Shown in pieces: positions 1,596-19,985 of a stretch of 35,304 bases of DNA. A program made the position numbers and the translations under genes. The stretch lies in IMG/VR virus record IMGVR_UViG_3300014656_000080, positions 1 to 35,304 of that record, one strand, 5' to 3'. The notes beneath the pieces were generated by a model. That model ran no database searches. It was given only the letters and a program-made list of their open reading frames with translations, and was not told the DNA's origin. Positions within the stretch are counted from its first letter, which is position 1; each line of letters begins with the position of its first letter. The stretch comes from a virus (Duplodnaviria; Caudoviricetes).

Positions 1596-1895
1596 TTAAT
1601 AACAACTCCCGATCCGGACAGAAGCCGTCTCGCCCGTGGCACAGATAACTGCCACTTTTTCACATTGGACTGGGAGTTCTACCAAACCGTCTCCGTTGGT
1701 GATTTTGAAGTCGGTGGTTTCAGCCGTATCTTCATCAAATGCCAGGAATACATCATTCGGTCCGTCGTTGCGTACAAGTAATTTCTTGCTCGCACGTTTG
1801 AGTTCCACTAAACCAGAGGCCCCGGTGGATGCAATTATATTGCTTTCAATACTTTCGGCATAGAGCATATCGCTCCAAGTGTAATGTCTTGCCAT
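1596..1895 (-). CDS. Hypothetical small beta-rich protein (99 aa), coupled to the second radical SAM gene
   Basis: Starts 1 nt after the stop of 1897..3114; alternating beta-strand pattern (LLVRNDGPNDVFLAFD). Confidence 0.65.
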   Translation of the reverse strand: MARHYTWSDMLYAESIESNIIASTGASGLVELKRASKKLLVRNDGPNDVFLAFDEDTAETTDFKITNGDGLVELPVQCEKVAVICATGETASVRIGSCY

Positions 1896-1896
1896 A

Positions 1897-3114
1897 TTAC
1901 TTTTCCTCCTCCTGAAATTTGGAAATCAAGTCCAAAAAATTACCCGTAACAAGGTAAAAAGCGGCTGCAAAGATCCCCAAGTAATAAAAATAACTGTTCC
2001 GACAAGATGCTTCCCAGGCTTCCCCTGGTTTAGTCATCATACAACCGCCTTTGCATAGTTGTTGTACCAAACACCCCCGGCAGCCTGGTTTTTGTGACCA
2101 GATAGTCATTTGTGAAGTGTCGATGGATTCCAAATCATTCAAATGGCCAATTTTTTCGGTTGTATTGTGGCAATAAAGTATATTGCCTTCCAAATCACAG
2201 GCAATATTTCCGGCCTTGTTCATACCGCATTTCCCGTAAAGAGAACTCGCAGGCCGATGGTTTTCGAGTGATTCAATAAAGTGTTTAACATGGGACATGA
2301 ACGAGGTTTTTTTAAGCTTTCCGGAAAGTATCCCACTCGTGATCATATCTGACATCAAACTGCCTGTAACGTCATCAAATTGGAGTGCCTTATTATCCTT
2401 GGTACGTTCTCCGATTGAAGCGGCGCCTTCAAAGCTGACAATGACATCGTTGCCGACCCTTCTTTGCAAATGTTGGACAATTACATAGGGGTCCAGATTC
2501 CCAGGTGTGAGGACGGCATTAAAAACAGAACGATCTTTATACCCCGGGCTCTCGGCCAACTCTTTTACAATACCAAGGATTTCAGGATCATGAAGAGGGT
2601 CATCAGAGCGAAGAAATTGCCCGGGACCGTCATGACTAATAACCAAGTGGATATTATATTTTTTCAGGAAATCAATTTTTTCCCGGGTGAGTAAGGAACC
2701 ATTGGAAATTATGCTCATTTTTGCTTCCGGGAAAATTTTCCACAACTCGGGAGCCAAGACAACAATTTTATCCCAATACAAAAGCGGTTCCCCACCCCAG
2801 AACTCGATTTTATTCAGGTTCCAGTTCTTTTCTGCCACCATCTTCAGGAAGGCTTTTATATCAGGTTTTTTTATGGGGTTAATCGGGATATTTTCTGTTT
2901 GACTGCAATACTCACAGTGGTAATTGCACTGAAGTCCCAAAAGGATTTTCAGTATTTTTACCTTCTTTTTATCTTTGTCCGGACAACCCTCTGGTGATAG
3001 CCATTCCCTTTGTGGATCTGGATACAATGGTTTGCCATCAGTATCCGTTAATAAATTCATGGCTGGATCATATACAAAGGCTTCCTTTTTTTCATTAACG
3101 AGCAAATAATTCAT
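1897..3114 (-). CDS. Radical SAM protein with SPASM domain (405 aa)
   Basis: CNYHCEYC (CxxxCxxC), FWGGEPLL, SNGSLL, ISHDG; SPASM-type KCG...GNILYCH...CRGC-x5-C-x3-C...C. Confidence 0.95.
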   Translation of the reverse strand: MNYLLVNEKKEAFVYDPAMNLLTDTDGKPLYPDPQREWLSPEGCPDKDKKKVKILKILLGLQCNYHCEYCSQTENIPINPIKKPDIKAFLKMVAEKNWNLNKIEFWGGEPLLYWDKIVVLAPELWKIFPEAKMSIISNGSLLTREKIDFLKKYNIHLVISHDGPGQFLRSDDPLHDPEILGIVKELAESPGYKDRSVFNAVLTPGNLDPYVIVQHLQRRVGNDVIVSFEGAASIGERTKDNKALQFDDVTGSLMSDMITSGILSGKLKKTSFMSHVKHFIESLENHRPASSLYGKCGMNKAGNIACDLEGNILYCHNTTEKIGHLNDLESIDTSQMTIWSQKPGCRGCLVQQLCKGGCMMTKPGEAWEASCRNSYFYYLGIFAAAFYLVTGNFLDLISKFQEEEK

Positions 3115-4046
3115 ACAGAGAGTTCCTTAAAAAGTTTATGTTGTTCCAAGGCCAAAAAGCAGTCCACTTCATGGGTGGTGGAAAGATAACAATTTCCCTG
3201 GCACCAAGGAGCTGCCTCACACTCTTGGCATTTTTCACTTTCAATGTATTGTCGTGTCATGGGTGGTGGGACATAGCCGTCCAAAGTCCCGATTCTATTT
3301 TCTATATTGGCGCAGTAATGACAGGGGTAAACATTGCCGGCCAGGTCGGTGGTGAGTTTTCCTTCGTGACAACAAAAAGAATTCTGGGTTGCAGGCTTTG
3401 AGAAAGCGTCTTTCCAGCGTTTTAATTGTTGAGAAAAAAATTGTTCGGCAAAGAAATCACCCCTTTCCCGTAATTTTTCTAAGTCCCTCAAATGGGCCAT
3501 ATGGATTTTCACATCTTCGTGGGTCAGGTAATATTCTCCAGGACAATCCGGAGTGGCCCGGACATAGCCGACAGCCGTATAAAATTGGCGGTTGAAAGTC
3601 CTGCCTAAAGCGGCCACGAATTCTCTGAATTGCCAAAGGTTGACGTTGCCCCGGCGGATCAAAAAACTGATGCTGCTCTTTTTTATGTTGGAAAAGGCTT
3701 CCCACCTGGCGGCGCCATACTCAGAATGTTCACTGAGACAGACATAAAAATTGTTTTCATTAAGATACTGAACTTTTTCTTGATCCAAAAGGCTGCCGTT
3801 AGTGATCATTATAACTTTGTCGAACTGTAAACCAGCAGCCAGGAAAAAATTGTGGACGGTTTTGATCGTGTCCCAGTACAATAGGGGCTCGCCACCCCAG
3901 TACCCTATTTCACGGATGTTATTGGCCCGGATATAATCAAGAATTTTGTCCATGTCGGGAACAACCGGTGCAATAGGATTTTTCGGCTGCAAACAATAAT
4001 CACAATCAAAATTGCACCGGTTCCCTAAGAAAACATTTAACATCAA
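3111..4046 (-). CDS. Radical SAM protein with SPASM domain (311 aa; likely ATG at 4043)
   Basis: CNFDCDYC, YWGGEPLL, TNGSLL; SPASM-type CC...GNVYPCHYC...CQEC-x5-C-x3-C...C; start and stop overlap both neighbours. Confidence 0.95.
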   Translation of the reverse strand: MMLNVFLGNRCNFDCDYCLQPKNPIAPVVPDMDKILDYIRANNIREIGYWGGEPLLYWDTIKTVHNFFLAAGLQFDKVIMITNGSLLDQEKVQYLNENNFYVCLSEHSEYGAARWEAFSNIKKSSISFLIRRGNVNLWQFREFVAALGRTFNRQFYTAVGYVRATPDCPGEYYLTHEDVKIHMAHLRDLEKLRERGDFFAEQFFSQQLKRWKDAFSKPATQNSFCCHEGKLTTDLAGNVYPCHYCANIENRIGTLDGYVPPPMTRQYIESEKCQECEAAPWCQGNCYLSTTHEVDCFLALEQHKLFKELSV

Positions 4047-4990
4047 GCAACTACCGTGATGTCAATTGAGGAAGAGTTTTCATACCATTTATAGCCGAAT
4101 TTAACAGTGGCCAGTTCACCTACTGAAAGACCAAGGGCCATGAAGGTGAATTCTCCCAATCCATCGACCAGCTCAAGGTTAGTCCTGGGCAAATAACCGG
4201 CATCAGTTTTGATGTAAACCTTGATATCACCATTGTAAGCACCCCCATCTGCATTGGTCACTTCGACGGGCATTTGTACCGTCCCTCCAGCAGAACATTC
4301 GAGGGTTTCATCGGTTGTCATTATTTCATAAAAATTTGCTCCGAAATCATGAAACCCGGCCTTTGTGATCGGAACTTCAACATCAAAAGTAAGATTGCTA
4401 TAATAACCGATGTCCTCACTCACGGTGAGCCGGATACCGTCACCACTGAAACCGCCAAGCGATGAGCCAAGGTAAATTTGGGCAATGGCGCTGACCCCTT
4501 GCCTCAAGATATAATTACGACCGTCTTGTTTACTGGTTTTAGTGGCTGCAAATTTGTTATGGGGCAATATTAAAGAGCCGTCAGCCTTCATCAAAATTGT
4601 TATGTCCGAATGAATCGCCCAAAGTGTTTCTGGATTCAAACCATGGACATCAAAAGATTTGTCCAGGGTGAGAACACTCCGCAACCGAAAGGCATATTCT
4701 TCTGATTTACCAAACAATTCACCAGGGATCAGGTTCCCAAGAGTGTAATGTACTGGCAAGGGGGCATCATTATGTACCAGTTCCGGCAATTCGGTTTCAA
4801 AAGTGCAATTGGCTGGATACACTTCACTTCCGTCGCAAAGGCTTATCCAAACATCTGTTCCGTTTTCATCGGTGAGTTGTAGGGTGTCATATGTGGCAAA
4901 ACTAACTTGGTCCTCTTCGACCAAAGTGCGGATTAAATATTTTCTGCCAAGGCCAGTTGTAATTCCACATCCAAAATCTTTTTTTTCCAT
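4043..4990 (-). CDS. Hypothetical protein (315 aa) with C-terminal Ig/invasin-like beta-sandwich; accessory gene of the rSAM cassette
   Basis: RBS AAGGAG; stop overlaps the rSAM start (TGATG); beta-rich C-terminus GYLPRTNLELVDGLGEFTFMALGLSVGELATVKFGY. Confidence 0.75.
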   Translation of the reverse strand: MEKKDFGCGITTGLGRKYLIRTLVEEDQVSFATYDTLQLTDENGTDVWISLCDGSEVYPANCTFETELPELVHNDAPLPVHYTLGNLIPGELFGKSEEYAFRLRSVLTLDKSFDVHGLNPETLWAIHSDITILMKADGSLILPHNKFAATKTSKQDGRNYILRQGVSAIAQIYLGSSLGGFSGDGIRLTVSEDIGYYSNLTFDVEVPITKAGFHDFGANFYEIMTTDETLECSAGGTVQMPVEVTNADGGAYNGDIKVYIKTDAGYLPRTNLELVDGLGEFTFMALGLSVGELATVKFGYKWYENSSSIDITVVA

Positions 4991-4999
4991 AGTTGCTCC

Positions 5000-5632
5000 T
5001 TATGCGTTATCACTGCAATCACAATCACAGTCGGTGCTACAATAAGTTGGATGATTTTCTATCCATGAATAATCAATCATCCCGGTGGCGCCGATAACCT
5101 GAAGACCATCCACGTAAAGTCCATCCGTACACGAAATTGCACCAGCCACGGTAATAGAAGCCGTAAAAGTGGTATGAGTGTGGTTGGTGGACGCATAGGT
5201 GGTATGAGTATGGCTAAGGGCTGCATATGTGGCCGAATAATCATGGGTGTGACTAAGGGTCGCATAAACACCACTATGGACATGACTGAGGGCTGCATAA
5301 GCGGTTGAATAGTCATGGGCATGAGTAAGAGCCGCATAAGCGGAAGCATGGTTATGATCAACAGTCGAATAAACACCAGCATGAGCATGACTGAGGGTGG
5401 CATAAACGGTGGCATGATTGTGATCAATGGCAGCATAATCAGTATCATGGTTATGATCGCCCATGCTGATTGGAACCCATCCGGCAGATCCACCAAAATA
5501 AAACTCCCCATCACCAGAGTATCGAACGATTCTTCGGCGATCTTCAGTAGTCCAAGTTGGCAAAGTGGCCAATTCTTGTACTTTTATGGAAGCTTGAAAA
5601 TCATATGGTACATATATTTTTTTGTCTGACAT
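5000..5632 (-). CDS. HxH-repeat tail fibre/tip-like protein with Cys-rich C-terminus (candidate rSAM substrate)
   Basis: Nine HxH doublets in 10-13 aa repeats; C-terminus YCSTDCDCDCSDNA; lies directly downstream of the tail fibre gene. Confidence 0.75.
   Translation of the reverse strand: MSDKKIYVPYDFQASIKVQELATLPTWTTEDRRRIVRYSGDGEFYFGGSAGWVPISMGDHNHDTDYAAIDHNHATVYATLSHAHAGVYSTVDHNHASAYAALTHAHDYSTAYAALSHVHSGVYATLSHTHDYSATYAALSHTHTTYASTNHTHTTFTASITVAGAISCTDGLYVDGLQVIGATGMIDYSWIENHPTYCSTDCDCDCSDNA
5174..5455 (-). repeat. Intragenic tandem repeat encoding nine HxH-(x2-5)-Y[AS]xxx units
   Basis: DHNHDTDYAAI DHNHATVYATL SHAHAGVYSTV DHNHASAYAAL THAHDYSTAYAAL SHVHSGVYATL SHTHDYSATYAAL SHTHTTYAST NHTH. 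Confidence 0.9.
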
Positions 5633-5650
5633 ATCTTGCCTCGCAATTTA

Positions 5651-5700
5651 ACAGTAATCATTTACTGTCATAGTTTAGGATAGAAAAAGTTCTGAGTCAA
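5651..5700 (-). promoter_or_regulatory. Sigma70-type promoter plus palindromic operator for the HxH/rSAM cassette
   Basis: Minus strand TTGACT (5700-5695), 17 bp spacer, TAAACT (5677-5672); operator ACAGTAA-TCAT-TTACTGT at 5651-5668. Confidence 0.7.
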
Positions 5701-5704
5701 CGTG

Positions 5705-6604
5705 TTAAGCAGAAATACCATAAATCAAAGCTTTACCCGCGATACTGGCCCCGCCAAATGTAATCACGAGTTCATTGCTGTCCGTGTAATCAATTTCACC
5801 TTCGATACCTGCACCGTCATCATCAAAAACCTGAACGATTAAATTTGCAGTATCGAGGAAATGTTCCACTGTCCATGTGTCGCTGGCTGAACTCTGGACG
5901 TGAACATAATCTTTTTTCAGTTTGTTTTCTATATTCCGAATATCAACAAGCATTTCAGTTGTGATCTGGGCATTGCCTTCAAGCCTGTAAATAACTGCCA
6001 AACCGTGGCAAAAATGCTGAATATTGTTACCATCAACATAATTGGCGGGTGTTACCCCTCCTTCACTAACCCTCACTTCCCAAACCAAACCGATACGCCG
6101 GGATGTTTCAAGATTTATACTGGTATCTTTCATGTCTGGGTCATCGGTGGGTGAATACTCTTTGTAATAAACATCGATATAAATTTCATCGACCCGATCA
6201 CCATCCGTTGGTGTTGTCAATGTGGTGGGGCCAAAAGTTTGGTTGGTGTATTCCTTGTTGCTAAGGCAAATAGGCATCCAGCCATCCACAAAAATATACC
6301 CGGCCCCGGCGGCGGTACTGTCACCTCCGGTGATTGTGAAGTTGTTGTTGGGAGTGTTACCAGACTCGGTAATTTTAAAACCAGAATCATAAGCCCCGTT
6401 CCCCTGGATATGTTGGACCGCCCGTCGAAGGAGGTTGATGATAATCTCGGTGTTCTCGTTAAGCTCACGATCAAGCAAGGGAATACCATTCGATGTGCCG
6501 GGTTCCCGATACTCTTTGGCCACCATGTAATAGCCTTTTGATTCATCATAAGCCCAACCGCTATATTCACCCTCCCAATCCGTTCCTGTGTTTCCAGTAA
6601 TCAT
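5705..6604 (-). CDS. Baseplate-proximal tail fibre protein (299 aa)
   Basis: Position after the wedge gene; N-terminal KGYYMV...PLLDRELNE and RVDEIYIDVY motifs typical of fibre-attachment domains; C-terminal YVHVQSSASDTWTVEH module common in tail proteins. Confidence 0.7.
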   Translation of the reverse strand: MITGNTGTDWEGEYSGWAYDESKGYYMVAKEYREPGTSNGIPLLDRELNENTEIIINLLRRAVQHIQGNGAYDSGFKITESGNTPNNNFTITGGDSTAAGAGYIFVDGWMPICLSNKEYTNQTFGPTTLTTPTDGDRVDEIYIDVYYKEYSPTDDPDMKDTSINLETSRRIGLVWEVRVSEGGVTPANYVDGNNIQHFCHGLAVIYRLEGNAQITTEMLVDIRNIENKLKKDYVHVQSSASDTWTVEHFLDTANLIVQVFDDDGAGIEGEIDYTDSNELVITFGGASIAGKALIYGISA

Positions 6605-18968: not shown

Positions 18969-19154
18969 TTAAGCCGGCATGGTACAAAAATCGGTGAAGT
19001 AGTTCATGAACTCTGCTTGAGTACCCCTGGTAATTTTTTTGGTGTTTTGCATCCAAGAATGGAATCCTCCGATTAATTCCACTTTTTTATTTGTCAGTGA
19101 AAGTCTTTTGCAAAATTCCGTTACTGTGATTTTTTCAGCCGTTATTTTAGCCAT
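18969..19154 (-). CDS. Small pre-sheath protein (61 aa)
   Basis: RBS AAGGGAG; ITVTEFCKRLS...VELIGGF; paralog of the upstream ORF. Confidence 0.7.
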   Translation of the reverse strand: MAKITAEKITVTEFCKRLSLTNKKVELIGGFHSWMQNTKKITRGTQAEFMNYFTDFCTMPA

Positions 19155-19345
19155 TAATTTCTCCCTTTAAACTTTGATAAAATTTTCGTTTGAATAAAAT
19201 TTGATACCCGGGCAATCAATTTTCTGACACTTTTTTTGGCGTTTTCTACCAAAGAATAAAACTTCCCGGTTATCTCCGCCTTTTTGTTTGTCAATGAAAG
19301 TGAAAGCCTTTCACAAGACCCTGTTACTGTTGTTTTTATTGACAT
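19154..19345 (-). CDS. Small protein, paralog of 18969..19154
   Basis: ATG at 19345 with RBS AGGAGG; TVTGSCERLSLSLTNKKAEITGKFYS aligns with the neighbouring ORF. Confidence 0.6.
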   Translation of the reverse strand: MSIKTTVTGSCERLSLSLTNKKAEITGKFYSLVENAKKSVRKLIARVSNFIQTKILSKFKGRN

Positions 19346-19355
19346 TATTCTCCTC

Positions 19356-19985
19356 CTAAACTTCAATATAAGTTTCGTTTGGGCTAAATTTGATAAAAAG
19401 CTCTGTATCTTTGATTATAGAATAATTGGTTGCCCAACTGTTCATTCCTTGGAAGTTCATAACCGTGCTTCTATAGAAAAGATGCTCGGGAAGGTATTGA
19501 TAAACCGGATCAAGATCGGTAGCCGTTACTGCCACTTCGTTCAATCCATATGTTTGCCCTAAAACTTCCCGAGCTGATAAAAGGATATACCGGGCGACGG
19601 CCTCAAGGATCATTGTGGCATCACCGTTGGGTGTGGCACTGATCACACGGAGTGTATAGGCGTTCAGGTTACCTTCATAAACATCACCATCGGAATCTTC
19701 ATCGGTTGTGTCTTCTTCAGCAATGTAATCCCCAATAAAATCTTCCGATGGGGAAACATTGGCCGGGACAACGTACCAACCGGGTAACCGAGTATCATCA
19801 ATCCCATATCCTTGAGAGATCCGGACTTTATTCCCCGAAAGGTAATCTGTGGCCTTCATGACAAAGTCAGAACCCATGACCTCTTCATCAAAAATTTTTG
19901 AAAAATAGCTGGTGTTTGCCTTGACGGTTTCCAGTCCGGCGGCCAAGGTTGCAATAACGATTTTTTCAGGTAATAAAATTGACAT
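19356..19985 (-). CDS. Tail completion/terminator-like protein
   Basis: Acidic 209-aa protein upstream of the sheath; DLDPVYQYLPEHLFYRS motif. Confidence 0.6.
   Translation of the reverse strand: MSILLPEKIVIATLAAGLETVKANTSYFSKIFDEEVMGSDFVMKATDYLSGNKVRISQGYGIDDTRLPGWYVVPANVSPSEDFIGDYIAEEDTTDEDSDGDVYEGNLNAYTLRVISATPNGDATMILEAVARYILLSAREVLGQTYGLNEVAVTATDLDPVYQYLPEHLFYRSTVMNFQGMNSWATNYSIIKDTELFIKFSPNETYIEV

Follow-up and report, generated by a model that had tools for sequence, protein, structure and literature searches.

Two radical SAM/SPASM enzymes encoded beside a cysteine-ladder protein in a phage structural module: candidates for thioether stapling of a fibre tip

The cassette and its products

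The window, that is, the whole 35-kb stretch of DNA that was analysed, is an IMG/VR fragment of a genome about 25% complete, and its content is the structural module of a contractile-tailed phage. Direct reading of its minus strand confirmed the five closely packed genes (Table 1) that a previous sequence-only reading had described, together with their junctions (in order, a 9-nt gap, TGATG, ATGA and a 1-nt gap). No peptidase or transporter gene lies within the cassette.

Table 1. Features of the cassette and its surroundings (window coordinates).
Feature	Position	Strand	Description
210-aa ORF, fibre-type putative substrate	5000-5632	-	~58-aa docking-like N-terminal segment, nine HxH repeats, beta segment, C-terminal ladder
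Cys ladder and acidic end of the 210-aa protein	5003-5041	-	C198-S-T-D-C202-D-C204-D-C206-S-D208-N-A; predicted modification core
315-aa partner P ORF	4043-4990	-	N-terminal domain and C-terminal invasin/Big_1-like Ig domain
Radical SAM/SPASM enzyme A	3111-4043	-	310 aa from ATG, no N-terminal RRE, 7-Cys SPASM
Radical SAM/SPASM enzyme B	1897-3114	-	405 aa, PHROG 1802, ~55-aa N-terminal extension, 7-Cys SPASM
99-aa small phage protein ORF	1596-1895	-	co-transcribed with the cassette
299-aa baseplate-region protein, upstream of the cassette	5705-6604	-	possible fibre anchor
Late-gene cis element	5651-5668	-	AGTAA-N4-TTACT palindrome with 7-bp arms, 35 nt before the 210-aa gene

The five genes follow one another without interruption after a cis element that the capsid and tail genes share. 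This element, a candidate promoter or operator, was matched nine times at five window sites (0.90 expected; none of 100 shuffles reached nine), in line with the shared element of the earlier reading. Exact copies are located 30-62 nt before the capsid gene, an 893-aa gene and a 127-aa tail-region gene, and weaker copies precede the tube, protease and 677-aa genes. Scans of the window for sigma-70 promoters and terminators gave nothing usefully above chance.

The gene upstream of the cassette had been taken for a tail fibre gene; this label is a guess, as the 299-aa protein has no Pfam or PHROG tail-fibre match. Only a 60-aa C-terminal domain was matched, by unknown or 'virion structural' families. 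The gene comes after the baseplate J and wedge genes, its orthologue occupies the same place in a close relative (L168), and no significant match to RSP15 gp044 was obtained. The 99-aa gene was rejected as a core part, since among all loci searched it was found only in the window and in L168. The atlas neighbours of the 99-aa protein are unnamed viral clusters.

The 210-aa protein, the C terminus of which reads ...YCSTDCDCDCSDNA (Cys198, 202, 204 and 206; Asp208), is an HxH-repeat protein as first described, with nine units between residues 60 and 153, and has no match in Pfam, PHROG, NCBIfam or PDB. Its four full-length orthologues keep both ends, carry one to six HxH units, and all end in Cys-x-Asp or Cys-x-Glu; one of them matches a tail-fibre PHROG weakly (E 6e-6). 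PHROG tail families were matched by 15/27 top HxH-repeat relatives and by 15 of 30 hand-picked ladder proteins, one of which has a T7-type fibre N terminus. In many phages a ladder forms the C terminus of a bona fide tail fibre, and the 210-aa protein itself probably sits on the virion. In JWF and other phages the ladder is capped by a self-cleaving Hint domain, the cleavage of which would expose the ladder as a new end.

Enzymes A and B (mutual identity 25%) both match PF04055 and PHROG 1802, and each carries CxxxCxxC and SPASM cysteines including CX2CX5CX3C (A: C10/14/17 and C224/241/272/275/281/285/295; B: C63/67/70 and C296/315/345/348/354/358/371; conserved in alignments), in agreement with the claim of two different radical SAM/SPASM enzymes. 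The predicted model of A (pLDDT 92) resembles CteB and anSME, with CteB as its best match. The chain of A opens directly with the first strand of the barrel and hence lacks the leader-binding RRE of ranthipeptide synthases (PapB, CteB, NxxcB, QhpD, CrpC); the ~55-aa N-terminal extension of B is without a PqqD match. In both enzymes a His follows the auxiliary-cluster Cys, as in CteB. At the CteB proximity positions F112/F152/T186/S210/H363/Q364, read by hand, A has L/W/I/S/H/Y and B has S/W/I/S/H/N (two of six identical). A PDB sequence search returned TigE, a cyclopropane synthase, as the top match; over the PDB searches, TigE and anSME place alongside CteB. Among solved structures the nearest relatives are peptide maturases (CteB, TigE, anSME) and not the cofactor- or nucleotide-modifying enzymes considered as a counter-case; both proteins score far below all NCBIfam cut-offs, those of PapB and CteB included.

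The model of partner P is beta-rich, with the Ig domain at residues 222-315. Its N-terminal domain, which we consider novel, gave no clear PDB match in a whole-model search that barely probes that domain, and in BFVD it matched only uncharacterised phage proteins. A role of P as an RRE was ruled out by the predicted beta-rich, Ig-containing model, which has no winged helix, and a role as Cys donor by the lack of any conserved Cys.

Occurrence of ladder, partner and enzymes

Many unrelated phages have ladder, P and B together; where the Cys-rich tail has Cys-x-Asp at its end, A joins them. Among the best 80 of 563 confirmed viral B loci, a ladder ORF was found in 69 (terminal in 63) and no ladder by the search pattern in 11; P was present at 58 of these 80 and at 97/98 A loci. 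When the search was started from the motif alone and limited to terminal ladders followed by 2 kb or more of sequence, a radical SAM gene was nearby in 63/65 (31/32 + 32/33), against 3/76 control matches, for which out-of-frame or internal motifs were used. Querying viral contigs with the sequence of B by itself gave no matches; alignments were needed to reach homologues. The isolated phages RSP15, JWF and RP12 have the same layout. Homology of RP12 ORF75 to P was not detectable.

Cys-tailed proteins therefore accompany the homologous enzymes in both search directions, which answers the objection that such enzymes might usually lack a Cys-tailed neighbour. The idea that enzymes of RiPP type modify the Cys tail of a fibre-like protein was retained at its core because homologues travel with Cys-tailed proteins and the solved relatives are peptide maturases. 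Its restriction to fibres was not: many relatives have short ladder ORFs (60-120 aa, sometimes three consecutive) instead of fibres, a Desulfobacteraceae prophage (L449) among them, and in bacterial chromosomes ten strong homologues of B were seen with neither fibre nor ladder. Bacterial relatives of B also serve YcaO peptide clusters, their cores containing a single (D/N)-Cys dipeptide; no published description of these YcaO-linked relatives was found.

The earlier reading spoke of a twin-enzyme cassette, but the pair is not the conserved unit: B alone is common, and A joins with the Cys-x-Asp end. This end is present in 23/24 A-positive and 3/40 A-negative clusters (64 clusters at 80%); the raw two-by-two counts of A against the Asp end over 162 loci are 74 and 1 in the first row and 8 and 79 in the second. 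Three long-branch rows were left out of the tree-based tests, in which a dependent Pagel model was preferred over an independent one (LRT 37.2, df 4, p 2e-7) and none of 20,000 simulations reached the observed agreement of 58/61. Each trait changes about 10 times on the tree; an independent-pairs sign test (5 to 0 of 6-7 pairs) gave a median p of 0.0625 and did not reach 0.05. These figures refer to A-positive and A-negative loci recruited by different searches, and to an Asp-end trait defined after the data had been seen.

Where an A locus has a terminal ladder, Cys-x-Asp is present in 81 of 82 cases (duplicates between collections included), and A loci without a strict ladder (L111-L113, L052-L054, L193) end in the same way. 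The discordant clusters are L103, which has A and ends in CSCG, and L051, L035 and L160, which have the Asp end without an A-clade enzyme; other short radical SAM paralogues are present at L035 and L160-type loci. CX3D, the motif first linked to A, was weakened by L111-L113, which retain only Cys-x-Asp (i+2).

Mid-ladder spacers are N/D/A/Q at 178/192 positions and R, V, C, K, L or Y at the remaining 14. The x of Cys-x-Asp is unrestricted (N/D/A/Q in 3/25). As a register test, the last ladder spacer (N/D/A in 30/41, against 173/192 mid-ladder) gives a weak signal.

Proposed chemistry and competing explanations

The reading we prefer, tentatively and at a little under even chances, is that the two enzymes put thioether staples into the Cys-ladder tail of a probable virion fibre, B working along the ladder and A making a final Cys-Asp bridge. 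By analogy with CteB, PapB and NxxcB, each enzyme would cleave SAM, and the 5'-deoxyadenosyl radical would take a beta-hydrogen from the acceptor; a substrate Cys bound to auxiliary cluster I, at its open site, would then form the C-S bond, with a change of -2 Da per link. B would use Asn/Asp/Ala/Gln spacers (in the window Asp201, 203 and 205). A would use the carboxylate-bearing residue Asp208; its donor would be Cys206 at i+2, which is favoured, or Cys204 at i+4, the spacing known from PapB. P may be a substrate adaptor that replaces the missing RRE, or an Ig-type adhesin that caps the modified tip. The stapled, non-reducible tip would be displayed on the particle, where disulfides could not form while it is assembled in the cytoplasm.

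That the enzymes act on the ladder by a chemistry other than a side-chain thioether (for instance alpha-carbon sactionines, adjacent-residue rings, anSME-type Cys oxidation, C-C bonds, or removal of the carboxylate of the terminal Asp by A) is unlikely. The rank of TigE and anSME beside CteB, the few shared proximity residues, the 14 deviating spacers and the single-dipeptide cores of the bacterial B relatives are all compatible with it, as is the linkage of adjacent residues by TqqB (PMC9389541). Against it stand the CteB-like seven-Cys SPASM domain with its His after the auxiliary-cluster Cys, spacers that mirror the acceptors of NxxcB and a ladder end that mirrors those of PapB. Cyclopropyl synthases of the TigE/TvgB type have a GYW motif before the SPASM domain and an Ile/Val repeat substrate (PMC10878394); the sole GYW of A is at residue 47 (GGEP strand), B has none, and neither enzyme has the motif where TigE does.

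It is distinctly unlikely that the ladder is a true RiPP without a part in the virion, its core being cut off or acting in the infected cell (superinfection exclusion, anti-defence or metal scavenging) and the fibre-like body serving as leader. The frequent short ladder ORFs, L449 included, and the service of B homologues in ordinary bacterial peptide clusters agree with such a role. So does RP31, the 32 virion proteins of which (PMC5468394, Table S3) include no cassette protein, although an unannotated RP31 ladder ORF lies outside the reach of that list. The ladders that terminate bona fide tail fibres, the Hint caps, the late-gene element, and a cassette without peptidase or transporter argue for the virion instead.

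HxH motifs bind metal in fibres, and alternating Cys together with nine HxH units in one protein could suggest a metal or iron-sulfur core of a trimeric fibre, similar to HxH iron sites, for which the enzymes load or build the centre without crosslinking a chain. We hold this to be very unlikely: the matched SPASM families offer no known precedent, and covalent chemistry is suggested both by the restricted spacers and by the way a single Asp covaries with a single enzyme. The chance that the enzymes merely travel with the tail module and modify P, another virion protein or a host molecule appears slimmer still; P accompanies nearly every A locus and B occurs without a ladder at some loci, but the ladder-first search recovers the enzymes, the ladder ending tracks enzyme content and P has no conserved Cys.

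A broader version of the stapling proposal, which we put forward with more reserve, is a modular RiPP line on phage particles: B would staple the fibre-tip ladder with overlapping thioethers, and a swappable A would add a Cys-Asp lock, possibly between trimer chains, at Cys-x-Asp tips. Leader-free enzymes steered by an Ig partner would thus give hundreds of phages an enzyme-encoded, non-genetic layer on their receptor-binding proteins. If stapling occurs, the fibre tips of many phages carry covalent links that escape both sequence-based structure prediction and standard proteomics, with consequences for studies of host range and for the engineering of phages. Through the covariation of A with Asp, a loose argument from gene neighbourhood becomes a test at the level of one residue and one mutation, and A, as a compact (310 aa), RRE-less predicted crosslinking enzyme, might find use in peptide macrocyclisation.

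Comparison with known systems

Thioethers made by radical SAM enzymes have been described in peptides and in two cellular proteins; no account of them on a virus particle, and no published description of this cassette family, came up in a search that covered subscription papers and bioRxiv supplements thinly. Two other maturation systems were discarded: the anaerobic sulfatase maturase (TIGR03942; 42 and 36 bits against a cut-off of 349, with no sulfatase among 32 window proteins of a genome 25% complete) and the His-Xaa-Ser system (HxsB/HxsC, TIGR03977/03978; 31-55 bits against 268 and 370), as the repeats here are HxH, not HxS. PMC2938197 predicts hydroxylation or sulfation of tail-collar-like proteins by dioxygenases, not by radical SAM enzymes.

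CteB (SCIFF maturase, 5WHY/5WGG) comes first when the model of A is compared by Foldseek (E 6e-13, TM 0.70); the two have the same seven SPASM Cys and share the Ser and His proximity residues, whereas CteB has an RRE, is 20% identical and differs at four of six proximity residues. PapB, the radical SAM/SPASM enzyme of the freyrasin ranthipeptide (PapB/PapA, NF047865), is the best NCBIfam match of A and B, at 66.7 and 68.6 bits against a cut-off of 340, which leaves both outside the family. According to PMC9413430, PapB joins Cys to Asp/Glu at spacings of 0-6, the Cys donor being N-terminal to the acceptor as in the Cys-x-Asp/Glu end that A tracks. The native spacing is CX3D (CX0-6D tolerated), and the window offers C204-x3-D208 and C206-x-D208; the A loci conserve Cys-x-Asp instead, L111-L113 keeping the i+2 spacing only. 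PapB also accepts a C-terminal Gly carboxylate (PMC9413430, PMC12373016), a possible post-hoc reading of the exception L103. Its substrate is a secreted peptide, in contrast to the 210-aa phage fibre-type protein here, and A has no RRE.

NxxcB, which makes the streptococcal Cys-Asn beta-thioether in NxxcA, uses Asn and tolerates Ala, Gln and Asp (PMC9389541), the same set as the prevailing ladder spacers; it makes one link in a short peptide, as opposed to an overlapping ladder of 3-9 Cys, and the likeness drawn here is one of acceptor sets. Among isolated viruses, the Ralstonia phages RSP15, RP12 and RP31 and the Achromobacter phages JWF and 2-1 have PHROG 1802 genes related to B (26-33% identity), each placed after a gene with an Asn-Cys tail; their annotations go no further than radical SAM, sulfatase maturase or MoaA. 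In RSP15, gp047 is homologous to P (E 3e-22), and none of the five has an A orthologue. The closest cellular parallels are CrpC/CrpA of Methanococcus voltae and QhpD/QhpC, in which a SPASM enzyme puts thioethers on a Cys-rich protein encoded next to it; phages are not mentioned in the part of PMC13692751 on protein ranthionine maturases that was available. As described there, those systems are cellular, with a single RRE-bearing enzyme and 17-residue repeats, whereas the window cassette has a pair of enzymes together with an Ig partner, within a virion module.

The cassette and its two enzymes

The lengths and junctions of the five cassette genes, read from the window sequence, agreed with the sequence-only reading. 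The window is a 35-kb virus record, about 25% complete, in which capsid, sheath, tube, baseplate J and wedge genes were located by family searches. The separate promoter/operator proposed before the cassette and shared with structural genes was recovered as a repeated palindrome before the 210-aa gene (nine matches at five sites in the window versus 0.90 expected), and the capsid gene and two further genes of the structural region are each preceded by an exact copy; its role is that of a candidate promoter or operator. The label of tail fibre for the upstream 299-aa gene is unproven, no tail-fibre family being matched in family searches. Elsewhere in the window, an array of ATATC-type repeats that contains an inverted repeat with a perfect junction, possibly a recombination or regulatory site, directly precedes a 193-aa tyrosine recombinase gene, and two pairs of 48–78-nt direct repeats, about 190–197 nt apart, occupy intergenic DNA before the sheath gene.

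Positions of features in the window and in compared phage and bacterial loci (L-numbers)
Feature	Position	Remark
210-aa fibre-type putative substrate	5000–5632	minus strand
P, partner protein	4043–4990	minus strand
A, radical SAM/SPASM enzyme	3111–4043	minus strand
B, radical SAM/SPASM enzyme	1897–3114	minus strand
99-aa gene	1596–1895	minus strand
299-aa gene	5705–6604	
ATATC-type array	282–347	
Tyrosine recombinase	357–938	
Direct-repeat pairs	19027–19395	
RP12 ladder ORF	L003:3975–4172	
Hint-capped ladder	L002:6640–8091	
Three-residue Cys repeats	L168:2190–3262	
Desulfobacteraceae prophage block	L449:4476–8123	
Fibre-less chromosomal B loci (L455, L456, L465, L475, L476, L492, L494, L495, L501, L506)		small ORF upstream of B match

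Enzymes A (310 aa) and B (405 aa) share 25% identity, and both contain CxxxCxxC and seven conserved SPASM cysteines. PapB was the best NCBIfam match of both, with a score far below the cut-off; the model of A (pLDDT 92) matched CteB, anSME and ChlB structurally, and profile searches with A and B ranked TigE, CteB and anSME. The TigE GYW motif was absent from the matching place in A and B, A lacks the space for an RRE, and B carries a short N-terminal extension. Only two of the six CteB catalytic-proximity residues, as defined in PMC10288494, are identical.

Ladder proteins and their neighbours

Candidate Cys/spacer ladders were collected by two DNA-pattern scans (73 and 120 loci, the first 80 of the 120 with full flanks). 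Where a terminal ladder was followed by 2 kb or more of sequence, a radical SAM gene was near it in 31/32 and 32/33 cases, versus 3/76 for control motif matches outside an ORF or within unrelated proteins. Of 563 viral B loci that were confirmed, the best 80 held a ladder ORF in 69 cases (terminal in 63) and P in 58. The expectation that radical SAM genes travel with Cys-tailed proteins holds from the enzyme side and the ladder side.

B was matched in nine cultured-phage records. RSP15 encodes B together with a homologue of P (E 3e-22) and a side fibre whose last residues are NCQCGN; JWF bears an Asn-Cys ladder on a fibre, capped by a Hint domain; and in Ralstonia phage RP12 an unannotated 65-aa ladder ORF ending NCNCNCACTRGSL precedes a radical SAM cluster. 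One ladder protein (L104) combines a T7-type fibre N terminus, collagen and ladder, and 15 of 30 ladder proteins, hand-picked and biased to long ones, matched PHROG tail families. Many phage ladders are carried by short peptides. Hint-capped ladders were seen in L002, L030, L031, L246, L358, L459 and L469; Hint cleavage would leave the ladder as a new C terminus.

The 210-aa protein gave no match in family and PDB searches. An exhaustive search with it returned 515 matches, most to HxH repeats, and 15 of the 27 best HxH-repeat relatives matched tail families. In four full-length orthologues the N-terminal segment and Cys tail are retained and the number of HxH units ranges from one to six; three of them end in Cys-x-Asp and one in Cys-x-Glu. 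Gene order in the closest locus, L168, is that of the window; it contains two ladder genes with the end CDCDCDCTD, as well as the 99-aa gene, which among the loci collected occurred only there and in the window. In L168, L087, L111 and L112 the ladder comes after three-residue Cys repeats of the type ((S/T)YC)n or (TxQC)n, which may be further substrate grammar.

P was modelled confidently (pLDDT 93.5). Its C-terminal Ig domain resembles invasin/intimin or glycosidase Big_1 domains (Z 10–11, rmsd 2.3–2.6 over ~90 residues); structure searches with the model gave no clear match for the N-terminal part, and whole-length matches were uncharacterised phage proteins only. P accompanies A in 97/98 A loci (duplicates between collections included). 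P may be an adaptor or a tip adhesin.

Enzyme A and the Cys-x-Asp end

Presence of A was compared with a Cys-x-Asp end in those loci that encode a full B and have a terminal ladder; the definition of the trait postdates inspection of the data, and A-positive and A-negative loci came from different searches. Counts for both, A only, end only and neither were 23, 1, 3 and 28 in the first set (133 loci, 55 clusters); the enlarged set (29 ladder-first loci added) gave 74, 1, 8 and 79 over 162 raw loci and 23, 1, 3 and 37 over 64 clusters. Each trait changed about ten times on the B tree. With L222, L160 and L162 dropped as long branches, a Pagel test favoured dependence (LRT 37.2, df 4, p 2e-7, one fitted rate at its bound), and 0/20,000 simulations of independent evolution reached the observed agreement of 58/61. 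The conservative independent-pairs test gave about 5 to 0 (p 0.0625) and cannot reach significance.

On genome contigs, 8/8 A loci with a visible ladder had the Cys-x-Asp end, most of them being related to loci in the earlier counts. The A-clade enzymes fall into a single starred group (14 representatives, every tail Asp-ended), and other short radical SAM paralogue families were likewise found only with acidic tails. The end persists in A loci lacking a strict ladder, and in L111–L113 the i+2 spacing alone survives. Exceptions are L103, with A and a ladder ending CSCG, and L051, L035 and L160. In further phage cassettes, whose ladders have acidic tails (CSDDSGGG, CGDDM and CGDSDE), the enzymes belong to two to four radical SAM paralogue families distinct from A and core B (L249–L319 subset, L114, L120, L124, L132, L035). 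The closest named context, one of the eight contig loci, is a Desulfobacteraceae chromosome prophage (L449) in which the P-A-B block recurs alongside two short ORFs that carry ladders; its B groups with the window's B on the tree, a kinship that weakly hints at the window's host.

Proposed chemistry and known systems

At 178/192 mid-ladder positions the spacer is N, D, A or Q, and the x of Cys-x-Asp is free. NxxcB links Cys to Asn by a beta-thioether and also accepts Ala, Gln and Asp (PMC9389541). PapB joins Cys to an Asp or Glu that lies downstream at spacings 0–6 (PMC9413430), and it can use the carboxylate of a C-terminal Gly as well (PMC12373016). QhpD and CrpC are precedents for protein substrates in PMC13692751, the available part of which does not mention phages. 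The best explanation, to which we give slightly less than an even chance, is that B would staple the ladder of the fibre-type protein and A would close the Cys-Asp link, the bond type being predicted and the register tentative for both steps. A PapB-like Gly-carboxylate linkage could account, post hoc, for L103; Gly-ended ladders were also found without A.

A role outside fibres is indicated by ten strong B homologues without a fibre on Ramlibacter, Variovorax and related chromosomes. Those inspected lie in RiPP-like clusters, behind a YcaO/SagD-like gene (a fusion, checked in L465) and a 36–72-aa ORF whose (D/N)-Cys core is succeeded by AISP-like and basic residues; the eight included in the tree group as a single clade among the phage enzymes, and no paper describing YcaO-linked B-family clusters was found. 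These fibre-less clusters support the B family as peptide maturases, yet show that it is not tied to fibres. Virion proteomics of RP31 listed no cassette protein among 32 virion proteins (PMC5468394, Table S3).

No published description of the cassette was found in the literature within reach, which excluded subscription papers and bioRxiv supplements. For the stapling by B and closure by A favoured here, the chemistry class is already known; the setting and the division between two enzymes would be new. The seven-Cys SPASM pattern, described for CteB, SuiB and TigE in PMC10878394, is common to these enzymes and to A and B.
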